Of a stretch of 31,346 bases of DNA, positions 9,001 through 21,000 are shown in pieces. The DNA comes from Candidatus Acetothermia bacterium (GTDB lineage: Bacteria > Bipolaricaulota > Bipolaricaulia > M55B111), in NCBI GenBank assembly GCA_046543235.1, contig JBKGZT010000008.1, positions 1 to 31,346 of the forward strand, given 5' to 3'. Each line of letters starts with the position of its first letter. The stretch's first letter is position 1. Made by a program: the position numbers.

Positions 9001-12000
9001 ACATCAAGCTCGAAAAAGGTGTAGCGGAGCTTGGAGGACTGCACGTACTGGGCACCCAGAGACACGAGAGCCGACGCATCGATAACCAGCTCAGGGGGCG
9101 TGCCGGCCGCCAGGGAGATCCCGGGTCAACCCAATTTTACCTTTCGCTCGAGGACGATCTGCTGAGGATTTTCGGGGGCGATCGAATAGAGAACCTGATG
9201 GAGAAGGCGGGTATGGAAGAAGGCGAGGCAATCGAACACCCCCTCCTGACCAAGGCTATACGCAGAGCCCAAAAGAAAGTCGAGGGTATAAACTACGAAC
9301 GGCGTAAGAACGTGTTGAAGTACGACAAGGTACTGGCACAACAACGCGAGGCAATCTACAGCCTGCGTGACCACTTCCTCCTCTCCGAAGAGGGAAGCAG
9401 TTCCTGGGCGGAAATTGACAGTTACTTAAAGCCGGTACTTCGAGATTACGTGGAGGATTTGCTTGAAGAACACGGCCTGGAAGACGGCGCCAAGGAAGCC
9501 GACCCGGAAGGGCTGGAAAAGGAGCTCTCGGAGTTTCGCAATGCTTCGTTCGATGAGGACCTTCCCGAAGGAGGCTCCAACGACTTAAAGGTTCTCGCGG
9601 AGGAGTTCGTTTTCGAGAACTGGGAAACGCAACTCAACAGGTTCAAAGAGGGGGAGGGGGTAGAACCCGAACTAATCAAGTCGGTCCTGATAAAGGTAAT
9701 AGATCGTAAATGGAGGGACCACCTTTACCTAATAGACGACCTGAAATCGGGCGTTGGGTGGTCGTCTTACGGGGGTAAAGATCCTCTCGTAGAATTCAAG
9801 CGGGAATCCTTTCGGCTATTCCAGGACATGCGGAGCGATTTGCGCCAGGAAATAGTTAACTTGCTGGTAAAAACACGTCTGGAAGTCGAAAGATCGGCCG
9901 AGAAAGTCGATTCGAGGGTCGACACCTCAAAATTCAATTTCCAGGGCGGCGAGAGCCGTGGCGGTTTGCCCGATAAGGAACCTACCGGAACCGACGGGAG
10001 CAGAAATAAGGAATCCAATCAAGGGCAAAGAATAGTAGAGGACGAACCGGGACGGAACGACCCCTGCCCGTGTGGTAGTGGAAAGAAGTATAAATACTGC
10101 TGTGGTGCGGACGACTGAGTTTAAAAGTTCTTCAACCCGAAACTGCACTTAGTGTTCGTTCACCTCAATACTTCCACAAAATAACTTCGAGACCAAAACT
10201 TTGAATAGATGGGAAAACTGAGGTAAGAATTTTATCGTTCTTTTCCCTTTCAGGGACCAGCTATAGACCATAGTTCGTTTTGTTTCGATTGATTTATCGC
10301 CCAAAAACGTTATAATAATCATAGACAATATTAGAGTGGAATAGAGGTAAGCTGTTTAACAAGCAAGGTCGATTAACAATATTCACAAAAGGAGGTGTTT
10401 TAGATGGAACCTATAACTGCCATGGTGTTGGGTTTCTTCTGGTCCATGTGGGCAACTGCCTTTCTCTCCTTCATGGGATGCGGAATCTGCTAACTTTAAA
10501 CAGTTAGAGCAAGCTGCAAAAGATAGGTGATTTTCTTGTCGAAACGTAGAATATTAGCAATTGTGGCTATTGGGTTCTCGTTACTAATTCTTTTTACCTT
10601 TCTCGTAACGGGGGACGAGGTCTCGGGCAAGTTATCCCAGGTTATCACGAGCAGGCTTGGCCTTAGCTCAGACGTATACAGGGTCATAGAGACTGAGTAC
10701 CAGGGAGAAAGGGTTATTTTAATTGCTATATATGGAAGCGACCGGGCGCTTGATAGTTCGCTAGGGGAGGACATCAAGTCAGGACTGCAGGAAAACATGG
10801 ACGAATCACCGATAGCGTTATCCGTGCTAACCCGGAAAAAGGACGCCAAATTTCACCCTTACGCTGTGAGAGTTTTACAGGGGGATGAGAAAAAGCGTCC
10901 GAAGAACATGGTCGGAATTACGGAAGGTTTCAAGGACGGTCAGATGCCCGAGAAAGTCCCGATTGAAGATGAAGTATTCTGGGGAAGCAAGGGGATAATT
11001 ACCCTCGGGGACGGATTTGACGCCAGTTCCCCTTTTAAAGTTAAATACGGGTCTTCCAGTGCCGATTTCTCCCTAGGGGACGAGGTAATCAGGCAAGAGG
11101 AAAAAGTCACGGAGGAAAAAGAGGTAACGGAAGAAAAACCCGAAACCGGGGAATCGGGGTTGAAGGCCGCGGAACCAAAAACGGAAAGCAGAGGGGAAGA
11201 CAGTAGCTCTGACTCCGAAACCCCTTCGGATTCGGGGCAAAATTCAGCTGTCAGTGACTCCAGAACTGGACAGGGGGCCACTCTTTTAGCATCGCTGGCG
11301 ACCTTGTTATCAATTACTCTTTCGTTTTTGTAAGCGCACGTGCGTTTATAATTAAAATAAGAAAACGGGGCAGGACCAAAGAAGGTCCTGCCCCGTTACT
11401 ACTTTTCGAAAAAACCTCCGGTTTGTTCAAGACTCCTCTTCCACCAATTCTTCGTATTCCGTTTGGGATAACAGCGAGTCAAACTGGCCTTCATCCTTCA
11501 TATCCAGCCTAACCAGCCAACCTTCATCTCTGGGTGATTCATTGATCTTCTCAGGAGCACCTTCCAGGTCATCGTTCACTTCTTTCACTGATCCGTCTAC
11601 AGGAGCCTCTACCTCGGAAACGGACTTGACGGATTCTATAACGACCATTTCTTCCCCTTTGGAGTACTCGTCGCCGGTCTCGGGCAACTCGACGAAAACG
11701 ATATCCCCGAGCTCGTTTTGGGCGTAATCGGTTATCCCCACGCTTACCCCGTGACCTTCCTTTTCCACCCAGTCGTGATTTTCCGTATACCTTACGTTCT
11801 CTTCTTCTGCCATTGTACCTCCTCTTCAGTTATGATTATGATTTTTGGTAAACAGCTTTGTTCAAAATCCCATCATAAATGCCACTTCGTCCGACATTAT
11901 TTTCCTGAAACCCGGGGATCATTGCAACCTAGAACCCGATTAATTATATTTAATCGGTGAAATTTTCAATGGATGCGGTAATTTTAGCTGCAGGCAAGGG

Positions 12001-18000: not shown

Positions 18001-21000
18001 AAATCCGGAGACTTTTCCGGTCCTAAAACGATAGAACACCTGGTAGATACAACGATTTATTTCGAAGGAAAGCGCGATAACAAAGTACGGTTGTTGCGGC
18101 CGGAAAAAAACAGGTTTGGTTCGACCGACCCCCTTGGGTTGTTTCGGATGGCCGAGGACGGTCTGGAGGAAATACTGAATCCGTCCCAGTACTTCGCCAA
18201 AAAGGACGGAGGAACGGACGGGAAAGGTACAACAACGGTATGCACGCTTGAAGGTTCTCGACCGATACTTGCCGAGATTCAGGCCCTGGTTACGCCCTCC
18301 AACTTCGGGGGCAGCCCCCAGAGACGAACCACAGGCCTGGACTACAACCGTGTATCACTGCTCTTCGCGGTCATACAAAAACAGCTCGGGATAAACTTGC
18401 AGGAATTCGATATCTATCTTAACGTAATCGGTGGATTTAGGGTCGAGGAAACGGCCGGGGACTTGGGTGTGATTTCCGCTATATTATCGAGTCTCAACGA
18501 GGTTGAGGTTCCCCGAAGAACGGTGATAATTGGAGAGGTCGGTCTAAGCGGCGAGTTACGGCCCGTCAAAGCTCTCAGTTCCCGGCTCAACGAAGCGGAA
18601 AAGCTGGGTTACAATAGGGCACTCGTACCCGGGAGCAACCCGGGTCTAGGTCATTTGGACCCGAACTTAGACCTTCACGCCGCCGAGGACGTTTCGGAGG
18701 CCCTGAACGATCTCGGACTAAAGGAGTAATATGGCTTTTGAGACGCTTAAAGAACTTCTGGAGAACACAGCTCCTGGAACTACCCTGAGAGACGCGATAG
18801 ACAGAATCGTGGAACAGGGCAATGGGGGCATGCTCGTCATCTCCACTCTGGAAAAGCTGGAAGAGCTAATAACTACAGGTTTTCGGATTAACGCCGAGAT
18901 AACCTCCCAAAGGGTGAGCGAGCTATCCAAAATGGACGGAGCGATTGTAATAAGTGACGACCTCCAGAGAATTACCTACGCAAACGCTCACCTTTCACCT
19001 GACCCTTCAATCGAAAGCAAGGAGACAGGGACTAGACACAAAGCGGCCGAACAGACCGCCAAACAGCTGAAGATACCCGTTGTAGCTATATCGGAAAGGA
19101 GAAACAGGGTTACGATCTATTACAGGGAAAAGAGGTACATACTGAGAGATATCTCAACCATAATGTCCAAGGTCAACCAAGCCCTATTGATAATGGAGCA
19201 GTACAGGGGAAACTACGACGAGGCCATCCAGGAGTTAACTGCCCTGGAACTGGACGGAAACGTTCTCCCCTTCCACGTAGCCAACCCCCTGATAAAAATC
19301 GGACAGATGCTTACCTTAAAGGAGGAGATCCTCAGGATGTTTATAGAACTAGGGGAGGAAAAGGCCCTTCCCGGTCGCCAGCTAGATAACATGATGGCAG
19401 GCATTGAACGGGATCTGGAATTTATAATCAAGGATTTCCAGAAAGAACCTGAGAACAACTACGAAGAGATCAGAGAGAGAATAATCGAGCTCTGCGCAGA
19501 TACTCCTCCTTCGACAAAAAGCATCATGGCCCTTCTGGGTTACGAGGAGGAAGACCTGGACGAGTTTCTGTTGCCCCGGGGCTACAGAGTGCTACACCAA
19601 ATTCCTAGACTGCCCCACTCCGTCATAAAAAGGATGGTCGAAGAGTTCGGCAGCCTGGAGCACATACTGGAAGCGGACAGGGAGGAGTTACAAAAGGTAC
19701 GGGGTATAGCGGAAACCAGGTCCAGTACGATACAGGCTGGCCTGAAAAGGCTGGAGAACCGAATAACTTTAATGGAGGAATTAGAAACTTGAACGGAACT
19801 GAAGAGATCAGGCAAAGCACCGAGTGGATCGAGTCAAGACTTTCGAGAGAACCAAAGGTAGGGATGGTCCTGGGCTCAGGGCTTTCAGATACCATGAACG
19901 AGCTCGTCGATACGGACGTGGAATTCAGCTGGGAGGAAATCCCCAACTTTCCGGTTCCCAGCGTCGAAGGCCACGAGGGAAGGTTCATATCTGGTGCACT
20001 CAGGGGAACTCCCGTCTTGATCCAGCAGGGTAGGCTTCACTGGTATGAGGGCCTACCGTGGGAAGACGTAATTTATCCCGTAAGAGTTCACGCTGACCTC
20101 GGCGTCGAAAAACTATTTATGACCAACGCTGCTGGAGGTATAAACCGGGACTTCGAACCAGGTGATCTTTGCTTGATAAAGGATCATATCAATTTTGCCG
20201 GAGATAATCCACTTAGAGGTCCAAACCAGGACGAATTCGGCCCCAGGTTTCCGGACATGAGTCACGCCTACTCAAAGCAATTGAGGGAAATTGCCTTCAA
20301 GGTTGGCAGAGAGACGGGGGTCGACCTAAACCAGGGAATTTACGTAATGACCTCCGGGCCCAGTTACGAAACACCCGCTGAGATATCGGCACTGAGAACT
20401 CTCGGTGCTGACGTAGTGGGCATGTCGACGGTCCCCGAGGTAATTACGGCAAACCACTCAGGGCTGGAGGTGCTGGCAATATCCCTGGTAACAAACAAAG
20501 CTGCGGGTTTGCAGGAGGAGCTTTCGCACGAAGAAGTGCTCGAGGTGACGGAAAGAACCAATCAGAAGCTTGGAAGGTTGCTCTCGGGTATAGTCGGTGA
20601 AATCTAACCTAATCCTCTTTTTCCTTCTTAACTACTCGGCGTAAGCTTCCTACTTCCCGGTACTTTTCCCTTCGACTCGACAACAGTTCGTCACGGTCCA
20701 GGCTAATTAATTGATCCAGATGTCGGGAGAGGGAACGAGAAAGGTTTTTGGCCGAAGTCTGAAAATCATCATGGGCTCCTTTACCTCCCTCCTCGACGAT
20801 CTCGTCCACGATGCCGAGATCTCTGGCGCCGTTCGCGGAAAGTTTTAAGGCCCTTGCTGCTTCATCCGCACGGTCCCGGTCCTTCCAGAGGATGGCTGCC
20901 GCGCCTTCAGGAGAAATAACCGAATATATCGAATTCTCCAGCATCAACACTCTATCGGCAGCTCCAATTGCCACGGCGCCTCCGCTCCCCCCCTCGCCGA

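Follow-up and report, generated by a model that had tools for sequence, protein, structure and literature searches.

Loss of the peptidyl-tRNA hydrolase gene from the prs-rplY-pth-clpC run in the Bipolaricaulota family M55B111, and candidates for its replacement

Peptidyl-tRNA hydrolase (Pth) has been pursued as an antibiotic target, and archaea use Pth2 instead of the bacterial enzyme. Pth has been described as conserved in all bacteria (PMC6514570) and is essential in E. coli (PMC8012679). Candidatus Carsonella ruddii is described as having lost pth (PMC2175510). Pth is also the reported release factor of the bacterial RqcH quality-control pathway (PMC11633108). In yeast, Jlp2 is reported to release peptides from tRNA, with His44 alone proving essential, and the same preprint asks whether other His-bearing NFACT-R domains share this activity (10.1101/2025.09.04.673968).

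We analyzed contig JBKGZT010000008.1 (31,346 nt; the window) of genome G000, an assembly that is 87% complete and belongs to the family M55B111 of the Bipolaricaulota. The family is represented by 19 genomes, each incomplete (70-90%), with assembly sizes of 1.2 to 2.9 Mb. Like Carsonella, M55B111 is a case of bacterial genomes without a peptidyl-tRNA hydrolase. Unlike Carsonella, an insect symbiont portrayed as organelle-like and as having shed many genes for translation (PMC2175510), M55B111 has intact amino-acid biosynthesis, RF1, RF2, deformylase, SmpB, tmRNA, RqcH, and Dtd, and is apparently free-living. Our literature searches, which left most subscription papers outside their scope, returned no free-living bacterium without pth; the term "pth" does not occur in PMC9035817. 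Features of the locus are listed in Table 1. The gene at the end of the operon, previously named pnp, encodes a purine nucleoside phosphorylase rather than polynucleotide phosphorylase.

Table 1. Features of the prs-rplY-clpC locus on contig JBKGZT010000008.1
Feature	Position	Strand	Basis or remark
glmU-like nucleotidyltransferase, 340-344 aa	11969..12991	+	Pfam: NTP-transferase-type domains only
prs, ribose-phosphate pyrophosphokinase	13028..13975	+	Pfam
rplY (bL25/Ctc), acidic tail	14027..14770, stop TAA	+	Pfam; gene preceding pth in other families
rplY-clpC junction, 119 bp, site of pth in other families	14771..14889		Pth remnant absent
Sigma-70-type promoter-like site TTGAAT-N18-TATAAT, before clpC	14826..14855	+	Conserved across M55B111
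Shine-Dalgarno-like GGAGGTG of clpC	14877..14883	+	Sequence
clpC, AAA+ ATPase	14890..17373, GTG start at 14890	+	Pfam
radA/sms	17380..18729	+	Pfam domains; gene name inferred from domains
disA, diadenylate cyclase	18731..19792	+	Pfam
Purine nucleoside phosphorylase	19789..20607	+	Pfam (PF01048)

Pth (PF01195) was found in none of the 19 M55B111 genomes, compared with 144 of 147 genomes from ten other families; the sample covered 161 genomes of the phylum. Of the 144 outgroup Pth loci, we examined the 30 with the best scores: pth always begins no more than about 75 bp past the rplY stop, and in 11 of the 30 the next gene after pth is clpC. Thus, the survey's finding that Pth is absent family-wide and that pth stands behind rplY in other families holds in a larger sample. 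In M55B111, rplY is followed directly by clpC in all 19 prs-rplY-clpC loci. We conclude that a single deletion, in the ancestor shared by all of M55B111, removed pth from a prs-rplY-pth-clpC run; with 19 of 19 junctions closed and 144 of 147 outgroup genomes carrying Pth, a clean, family-wide deletion is better supported than had been stated. Neither of two midpoint-rooted trees (Prs plus RplY, and RqcH) names the sister family of M55B111.

The loss is almost certainly real. All 19 genomes are incomplete, so that a Pth or Pth2 might persist in a region that never assembles, or might have diverged past recognition. However, rplY and rqcH were recovered from all 19 of the same assemblies, the native pth site is closed in each, and the other M55B111 proteins are not unusually diverged. 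An unfiltered search of 25,252 six-frame segments of G000 with a profile of 30 outgroup Pth proteins, repeating an earlier blank search, gave a best E value of 0.31 for a 36-residue piece. We consider a hidden or diverged enzyme very improbable.

The distance of 119 bp reported between rplY and clpC in the window is correct. The corresponding gap measures 112 to 161 bp in 18 M55B111 loci and 271 bp in one (L041), where it holds an N-gap and a doubled promoter. Single contigs from runs X1 and X3, possibly derived from the same source DNA as the contig analyzed here, cross the junction. In 18 of 19 loci, TTGA(A/C)A-N16-18-TATAAT lies 33 to 37 nt upstream of the clpC start; the 19th, in the window, has TTGAAT-N18-TATAAT. 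Since this sigma-70-type site is conserved, clpC probably has its own promoter in M55B111. Hence, the description of a closed-up operon stands insofar as pth is deleted and its neighbors are adjacent in 19 of 19 loci, but the gap is not simply closed, as it holds the promoter-like site of clpC.

We looked for known substitutes. No M55B111 genome (0 of 19) has a match over cut-off to Pth2 (PF01981), in line with the earlier claim, and in this the family differs from archaeal Pth2 users, with which it shares life without PF01195. Three of four weak PF01981 matches (E values of 0.1 to 0.6) were examined and proved to be one unrelated stretch in frames of 343 to 798 aa that is absent from G000. 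Neither PF09391, which tests for the PTH2-fold protein DUF2000, nor archaeal DTD2 (PF04414), which has a Pth-like fold, was found in three M55B111 genomes. Each of three genomes has exactly two PF00472 matches, confirming that there is no third RF-1-family gene of the ArfB/PrfH type. No baeRF1 or VLRF1 domain (eRF1/VLRF1 type) occurs among 291 Pfam-scanned G000-specific proteins, a set from this one genome rather than from the whole family. We conclude that none of Pth, Pth2, DTD2, DUF2000, and ArfB took the place of pth in M55B111.

RqcH is present in 19 of 19 M55B111 genomes, SmpB is over cut-off in three of four, and tmRNA is over cut-off in three of five; in G000, no tmRNA was over cut-off, and none was found between dtd and smpB. 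N-terminal runs of D/E are reported to cause drop-off (PMC9718836). Across 607 genes, we saw no avoidance of acidic N termini or D/E runs: the D/E share is 17 to 20% at positions 2 to 10, compared with 17% at positions 41 to 100. Since RqcH, SmpB, and tmRNA are kept and N-terminal D/E runs are not avoided, peptidyl-tRNA should still arise in M55B111.

It is nevertheless conceivable that Pth has no enzymatic replacement: in slowly growing cells with a cytoplasm rich in salt and magnesium, drop-off would be limited, tmRNA would be the first to rescue stalled ribosomes, and the ester would hydrolyze by itself fast enough. The median pI of the proteome is 4.8 in G000, compared with 6.2 in the complete outgroup genome G020, which points to a salt-in, salt-adapted cell, and high Mg2+ is reported to counteract drop-off on acidic nascent chains (PMC9718836). 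SmpB and tmRNA are there to act first in most genomes searched, Carsonella is described as living without pth (PMC2175510), and our screen (below) yielded no convincing new enzyme. However, 144 of 147 other Bipolaricaulota, presumably slow growers too, have kept pth; RqcH would make tailed peptidyl-tRNA requiring release in all 19 genomes; and D/E runs at the N terminus are tolerated. The growth rate and cytoplasmic ions of M55B111 are presumed, and no literature relating hydrolysis rates to drop-off was found. We consider life without any replacement unlikely. It is a live rival all the same, and the survey's finding that some activity must recycle peptidyl-tRNA is to be read as likely rather than as a necessity.

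On balance, we lean slightly toward recycling of peptidyl-tRNA in M55B111 by a class new to this role in bacteria, be it the Jlp2-like NFACT-R domain of RqcH, a relaxed Dtd, or an unrelated new hydrolase. If this is true, a bypass of Pth would be demonstrated for the first time in a free-living bacterial lineage.

To look for an unrelated hydrolase, we screened G000, in which 1228 genes were called, 445 of them without a blastp hit in G020. The screen comprised 312 soluble proteins of 70 to 460 aa with no or a weak G020 hit: 291 were Pfam scanned, 7 lie in the window (where 24 proteins were scanned), and 14 were assessed by eye only. No Pth, Pth2, or release factor was matched among the 312. 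Neither 46 uncovered extra domains nor the large unmatched G000 proteins, judged by their first 60 residues, offered a better candidate, and no obvious co-loss partner of pth appeared among 215 G020-only proteins (first 38 residues). Motif patterns for EF-P, HflX, RF3, bL31, YbaK, and Rae1 matched in neither of the two genomes compared and were uninformative. A 114-aa orphan is ferredoxin-like, and a basic 144-aa orphan had no match in three of three genomes of other genera.

A dedicated, nonhomologous enzyme may have been acquired and missed, such as a free-standing YbaK/ProX protein encoded in the unassembled part, a generic esterase or nuclease acting with the CCA-adding enzyme, or DUF4416 or a 122-aa orphan with a newly assumed role. 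The Pfam screen was confined to assembled genes for soluble proteins with no or a weak G020 hit, leaving aside predicted membrane proteins and whatever G000 shares with G020, and free-standing PF04073 proteins (frames of 170 to 219 aa) occur in three of four M55B111 genomes while being absent from G000 and G020. The substrate of YbaK-type enzymes is unblocked aminoacyl-tRNA, however, which counts against them. DUF4416 is present in 18 of 19 M55B111 genomes and 0 of 43 others, and the 122-aa orphan, 69 to 77% identical across M55B111 genera, in 17 of 19 and 1 of 58, respectively. Both are nonetheless a poor fit. Pth is kept in 38 of 40 other DUF4416-bearing genomes, and the DUF4416 model resembles HPPK (Z 8.3; rmsd 3.6; 125 aligned), which agrees with the earlier dismissal of this protein; we found no literature on it. 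The fold of the 122-aa orphan is receiver-like (Z 9.6; rmsd 2.8; 106 aligned), and the orphan also occurs in a Pth-bearing genome (G058). In 80 loci of its homologs, the neighboring genes, as named by eye, are Lrp/AsnC-like in 23 and glutamate-dehydrogenase-like in 19. Among the matches listed for the two proteins, none has a Pth or Pth2 fold. An acquired enzyme that escaped the screen is a real possibility, if short of probable.

We tentatively propose that the work of pth passed to tRNA-ester hydrolases already present, namely, the NFACT-R domain of RqcH and Dtd, in a salt-in, slowly growing cell with a lower drop-off load; as judged from sequence, this is possible but somewhat doubtful. Our first pick would be RqcH, which would terminate the alanine tails that it adds and might also act on free peptidyl-tRNA. 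The W-x-H histidine of its NFACT-R domain appears to correspond to the catalytic His44 of yeast Jlp2, a match that rests on spacing and on what we take to be the Jlp2 motif. W-x-H, together with a second histidine eight residues farther on, is invariant in 18 of 18 M55B111 sequences covering the domain, and the domain matches CCDC25 (E value of 1.8e-8). M55B111 has a homologous NFACT-R in which one histidine stands at what appears to be the equivalent position, followed by another after eight residues, but it differs from Jlp2/CCDC25 in that the domain lies within RqcH and is common to Pth-bearing relatives, and its release activity is putative. In five of five genomes, PF05670 gave one match, inside frames of 571 to 580 aa; solo NFACT-R proteins are absent.

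Several observations argue against RqcH. The same histidine is found in all 29 nonduplicate Bipolaricaulota NFACT-R domains aligned and in RqcH of B. subtilis, where Pth is said to have been found essential by Menez in 2002. NFACT-R is under no stronger constraint in M55B111 (R/N distance ratio, 0.51) than in family f3 (0.37), and an M55B111 profile is less like CCDC25 than an outgroup profile (37 versus 56 bits). In B. subtilis, the D-W-H motif of RqcH is described as contacting the A-site finger of the 50S subunit (10.1101/2020.09.03.281279). With the B. subtilis pathway as described, in which RqcH/RqcP tail and Pth releases (PMC11633108; 10.1101/2020.09.03.281279), M55B111 shares a full-length RqcH of 570 aa with D-W-H and, by motif match, a MutS2-like protein, but not the release factor. 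Since Pth is missing, the pathway must either be inactive or terminate by another route, and a family that kept RqcH while lacking Pth is a natural experiment. An assay of its RqcH would answer whether other His-bearing NFACT-R domains act as release factors, as the Jlp2 preprint asks.

The second pick, Dtd, is present in 17 of 19 M55B111 genomes as the sole dtd copy. A relaxed Dtd would cut N-acylated L-aminoacyl-tRNA, with EF-Tu shielding normal aminoacyl-tRNA. Arg7 of DTD is reported to lock the L-rejecting Gly-cisPro motif, and the animal paralog ATD, which lacks Arg7, to accept L-substrates (PMC5802732); the passages of PMC6765224 that mention Arg7 refer to another enzyme. Arg7 is present in 27 of 27 outgroup genes and in all four solved DTDs aligned at this position. 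It is lost in two of three M55B111 genera: residue 7 is Val in 13 of 13 genus-1 and 2 of 2 genus-3 genes (15 of the 16 read). However, the genus-2 genome G015 lost pth yet keeps Arg7, and the Arg7 change therefore postdates the loss. Moreover, of 47 sites invariant in the outgroup, 1 has changed radically, a share that does not exceed the background in four other proteins (11 of 301), and DTD1 is reported to be inactive on aldehyde-modified substrates (PMC10942605). M55B111 Dtd resembles ATD in lacking the arginine but differs in having SQFTL and NDGP rather than PQATL and TNGPYTH, Val rather than Gln at the Arg7 site, and no sign of the compensating arginine of ATD. Neither the RqcH nor the Dtd signal is decisive. 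A Dtd assay would show whether the DTD chirality gate opens to peptidyl substrates; if both proteins were inactive, Pth could be dispensable in slow, salt-in cells. The motifs of genera 1 and 3, SQFTL and NDGP(I/V)T, are otherwise intact and of the canonical DTD1 type, SQFTL with NXGPVT, and in the genus-2 protein motif 1 is altered to VPEFTL.

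Matches to peptidyl-tRNA hydrolase (Pth; PF01195) were found in none of the 19 genomes of family M55B111 but in 144 of 147 genomes from ten other families in the phylum sample; the three outgroup genomes without a match are 75 to 90% complete. By the source names of its close homologs, the family belongs to Bipolaricaulota; the name M55B111 is the one given in the survey. An unfiltered profile of 30 Pth sequences, searched against all six frames of G000, the genome under study, gave a best E value of 0.31 and no Pth. We consider it highly improbable that Pth is still present but hidden. 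Because rplY and rqcH were each recovered in all 19 family assemblies, as was the gene order prs-rplY-clpC, we rejected assembly incompleteness as the cause. Outside the family, pth directly followed rplY in 30/30 best-scoring outgroup loci, and clpC directly followed pth in 11 of the 30, all from families f2, f5, and f9. From these outgroup and family gene orders, the ancestral arrangement was most likely prs-rplY-pth-clpC, and we infer that pth was excised once, before the three family genera split. The survey's finding that pth is missing family-wide, with genome gaps an unlikely explanation, thus held up. We concluded that family M55B111 has almost certainly lost pth.

The closed junction is equally evident in the window, where, as the survey had described, only 119 bp separate rplY and clpC. 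The gap is 112 to 161 bp in 18 family loci; the remaining locus, at 271 bp, contains an N-gap. Outgroup pth-clpC spacing is 12 to 78 bp. In 18 of 19 family loci, TTGA(A/C)A-N16-18-TATAAT lies 33 to 37 nt upstream of the clpC start; the window version, TTGAAT-N18-TATAAT, is followed by a strong Shine-Dalgarno sequence. Judged by its sequence, the gap is not a neutral spacer, and the conserved sigma-70-type site makes it probable that clpC has its own promoter in the family. Such a promoter would have left downstream genes unharmed by the pth deletion. In the 271-bp locus (L041; G009:C45), the clpC promoter and start occur in duplicate with the N-gap between the copies, which probably reflects an artefact of assembly. 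The glmU-like gene encodes merely 340 to 344 aa and has no hexapeptide (acetyltransferase) domain match; a separate hexapeptide protein of 227 aa is encoded elsewhere. An open reading frame (ORF) behind secA (256 to 268 aa) has no Pfam match and no match in the complete outgroup genome, G020.

Locations of the features discussed (G, genome; C, contig; L, sequence piece)
Feature	Location	Strand
ORF behind secA	window 10527-11333	
glmU-like	window 11969-12991	+
prs	window	+
rplY	window, stop 14770	+
Promoter-like site	window 14826-14855	
clpC	window, start 14890	+
radA	window	+
disA	window	+
Purine nucleoside phosphorylase	window	+
Hexapeptide protein	L140:18730-19410	
RqcH, family	G000:C21:151-1863	
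RqcH, shortened example	G020:C1:960395-961795	
Dtd	G000:C92:17083-17523; L177:15664-16104	
DUF4416	G000:C24:7922-8467; L144	
122-aa orphan	G000:C69:8788-9156; L174:8788-9156	
Free-standing YbaK/ProX	G018:C67:3036-3395	
Free-standing YbaK/ProX	G015:C75:23424-23783	
Free-standing YbaK/ProX	G006:C92:4653-5015	
DRG-like GTPase	L139:852-1838	
NMD3-like protein	L139:18890-19411	
167-aa orphan	L199:631-1131	
156-aa orphan	L150:5933-6400	
glyQ, glyS-like	G000:C23	
gatC, gatB-like	G000 C34 and C50	

Pth has been termed universally conserved in bacteria (PMC6514570). The only published loss that we found is that described for Carsonella (PMC2175510), and the literature searched yielded no free-living bacterium without pth. 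Family M55B111 is a case in which a core translation gene was lost or displaced; its interest would be higher if a new hydrolase were demonstrated.

The need for peptidyl-tRNA recycling should persist in the family. Deformylase is kept in 4/4 family genomes, SmpB was found in 3/4, and tmRNA scored above the cut-off in 3/5. In Bacillus subtilis, tailed RqcH products are reported to be released by Pth (PMC11633108). The G000 proteome is acidic (median pI, 4.8, versus 6.2 in G020); acidic runs are described as triggering drop-off, and proteomes reportedly avoid them N-terminally (PMC9718836). No such avoidance was seen in 607 G000 genes with a ribosome-binding motif, in which, with start sites from our own gene calling, the share of D plus E was 17 to 20% at positions 2 to 10 and 17% at 41 to 100. 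That no enzyme replaces Pth seems unlikely to us, although high magnesium is reported to counter drop-off at acidic runs (PMC9718836).

Known substitutes were absent: Pth2 in 0/19 family genomes above the cut-off, DTD2 and DUF2000 each in 0/3, and PF00472 proteins beyond RF1 and RF2 in none of three. The survey's negatives on Pth2 and ArfB hold. It is possible, if doubtful, that the role was taken over by two resident proteins, RqcH and/or Dtd; this pair heads our ranking as the proposal that is most specific and can be tested directly.

The solo NFACT-R protein Jlp2 of yeast reportedly frees peptides from tRNA via His44, and the same preprint raises the question of whether other His-bearing NFACT-R domains act alike (10.1101/2025.09.04.673968). 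Family RqcH carries W486-F-H488 plus His496, with the eight-residue spacing of Jlp2 His44 and His52, and matches CCDC25 (E, 1.8e-8). Both histidines are invariant in 18/18 family sequences spanning the domain. However, the motif also occurs in all Bipolaricaulota domains aligned and in B. subtilis, PF05670 is present in 60/66 outgroup genomes, domain constraint is no stronger than in family f3, and the family profile resembles CCDC25 less than the outgroup profile does. The B. subtilis motif is reported to contact the 50S subunit (10.1101/2020.09.03.281279). RqcH could plausibly be a pre-existing back-up for Pth rather than a marked adaptation. In families f2 and f5, RqcH is shortened and diverged (about 490 to 545 aa) relative to f1, f3, f4, and f9.

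Dtd, the D-aminoacyl-tRNA deacylase, occurs in 17/19 family genomes and 139/147 others. Arg7 is described as locking the L-amino-acid-rejecting Gly-cisPro motif and as missing from the relaxed paralog ATD (PMC5802732). Arg7 is present in 27/27 outgroup genes (one read by eye) and in 4/4 solved DTDs whose alignment covers the site; position 7 is Val in the 13/13 genus-1 and 2/2 genus-3 genes read (the G003 5′ end was left out), as it is throughout an alignment of 26 full-length close homologs. The genus-2 gene retains Arg7, with VPEFTL instead of SQFTL. An opened gate might let a peptidyl-L-aminoacyl end bind, the peptide occupying the channel that otherwise accommodates the D side chain, with EF-Tu shielding normal aminoacyl-tRNA. 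Against Dtd, the Arg7 change is later than the pth loss, and a single radical change among 47 invariant sites does not exceed the background (11 among 301), so the signal draws its weight only from the residue's known role. Loss of Arg7 is of interest in its own right, even if unrelated to pth.

Replacement by an unseen acquired enzyme is a real possibility short of probable, spread over several weak candidates. We compared 1,228 called G000 genes with G020; after filtering, 312 soluble proteins remained that matched G020 weakly or not at all, of which 291 were Pfam scanned and 14 read by eye. The screen took in soluble proteins not shared with the outgroup, from a single 87%-complete genome set against a single outgroup genome. 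Two genes were family-wide and nearly family-specific; either could be the replacement, though neither is favored. DUF4416 (18/19 family genomes versus 0/43 others) has a confident model (pLDDT, 95) that is HPPK-like (Z, 8.3), and 38/40 other DUF4416-carrying genomes keep Pth. Among sampled families, M55B111 alone acquired it; it adjoins a prolyl-tRNA-synthetase-like gene in 13/80 other loci and is named in no paper found. The 122-aa orphan (17/19 versus 1/58) lies upstream of murD, is strongly conserved, belongs to no Pfam family, has a predicted receiver domain-like fold (pLDDT, 94.5; Z, 9.6), and co-occurs with Pth in G058. Its homologs often adjoin regulator (Lrp/AsnC-like) and glutamate-dehydrogenase-like genes (neighbors named by eye); there are 80 distant clusters, the Atlas ones mostly from Thorarchaeota, Zixibacteria, and Actinomycetota. 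A free-standing YbaK/ProX-type editing protein occurs in 3/4 family genomes but not in G000 or G020. Also with no or weak G020 match were a DRG-like GTPase with a TGS domain and a weakly NMD3-like 174-aa protein. Two orphans (167 and 156 aa) appear paralogous by eye; three more acidic orphans have 114 to 127 aa, one being ferredoxin-like. A two-subunit glycyl-tRNA synthetase and GatC/GatB-like genes had no match in G020, suggesting that tRNA-charging routes differ within the phylum.
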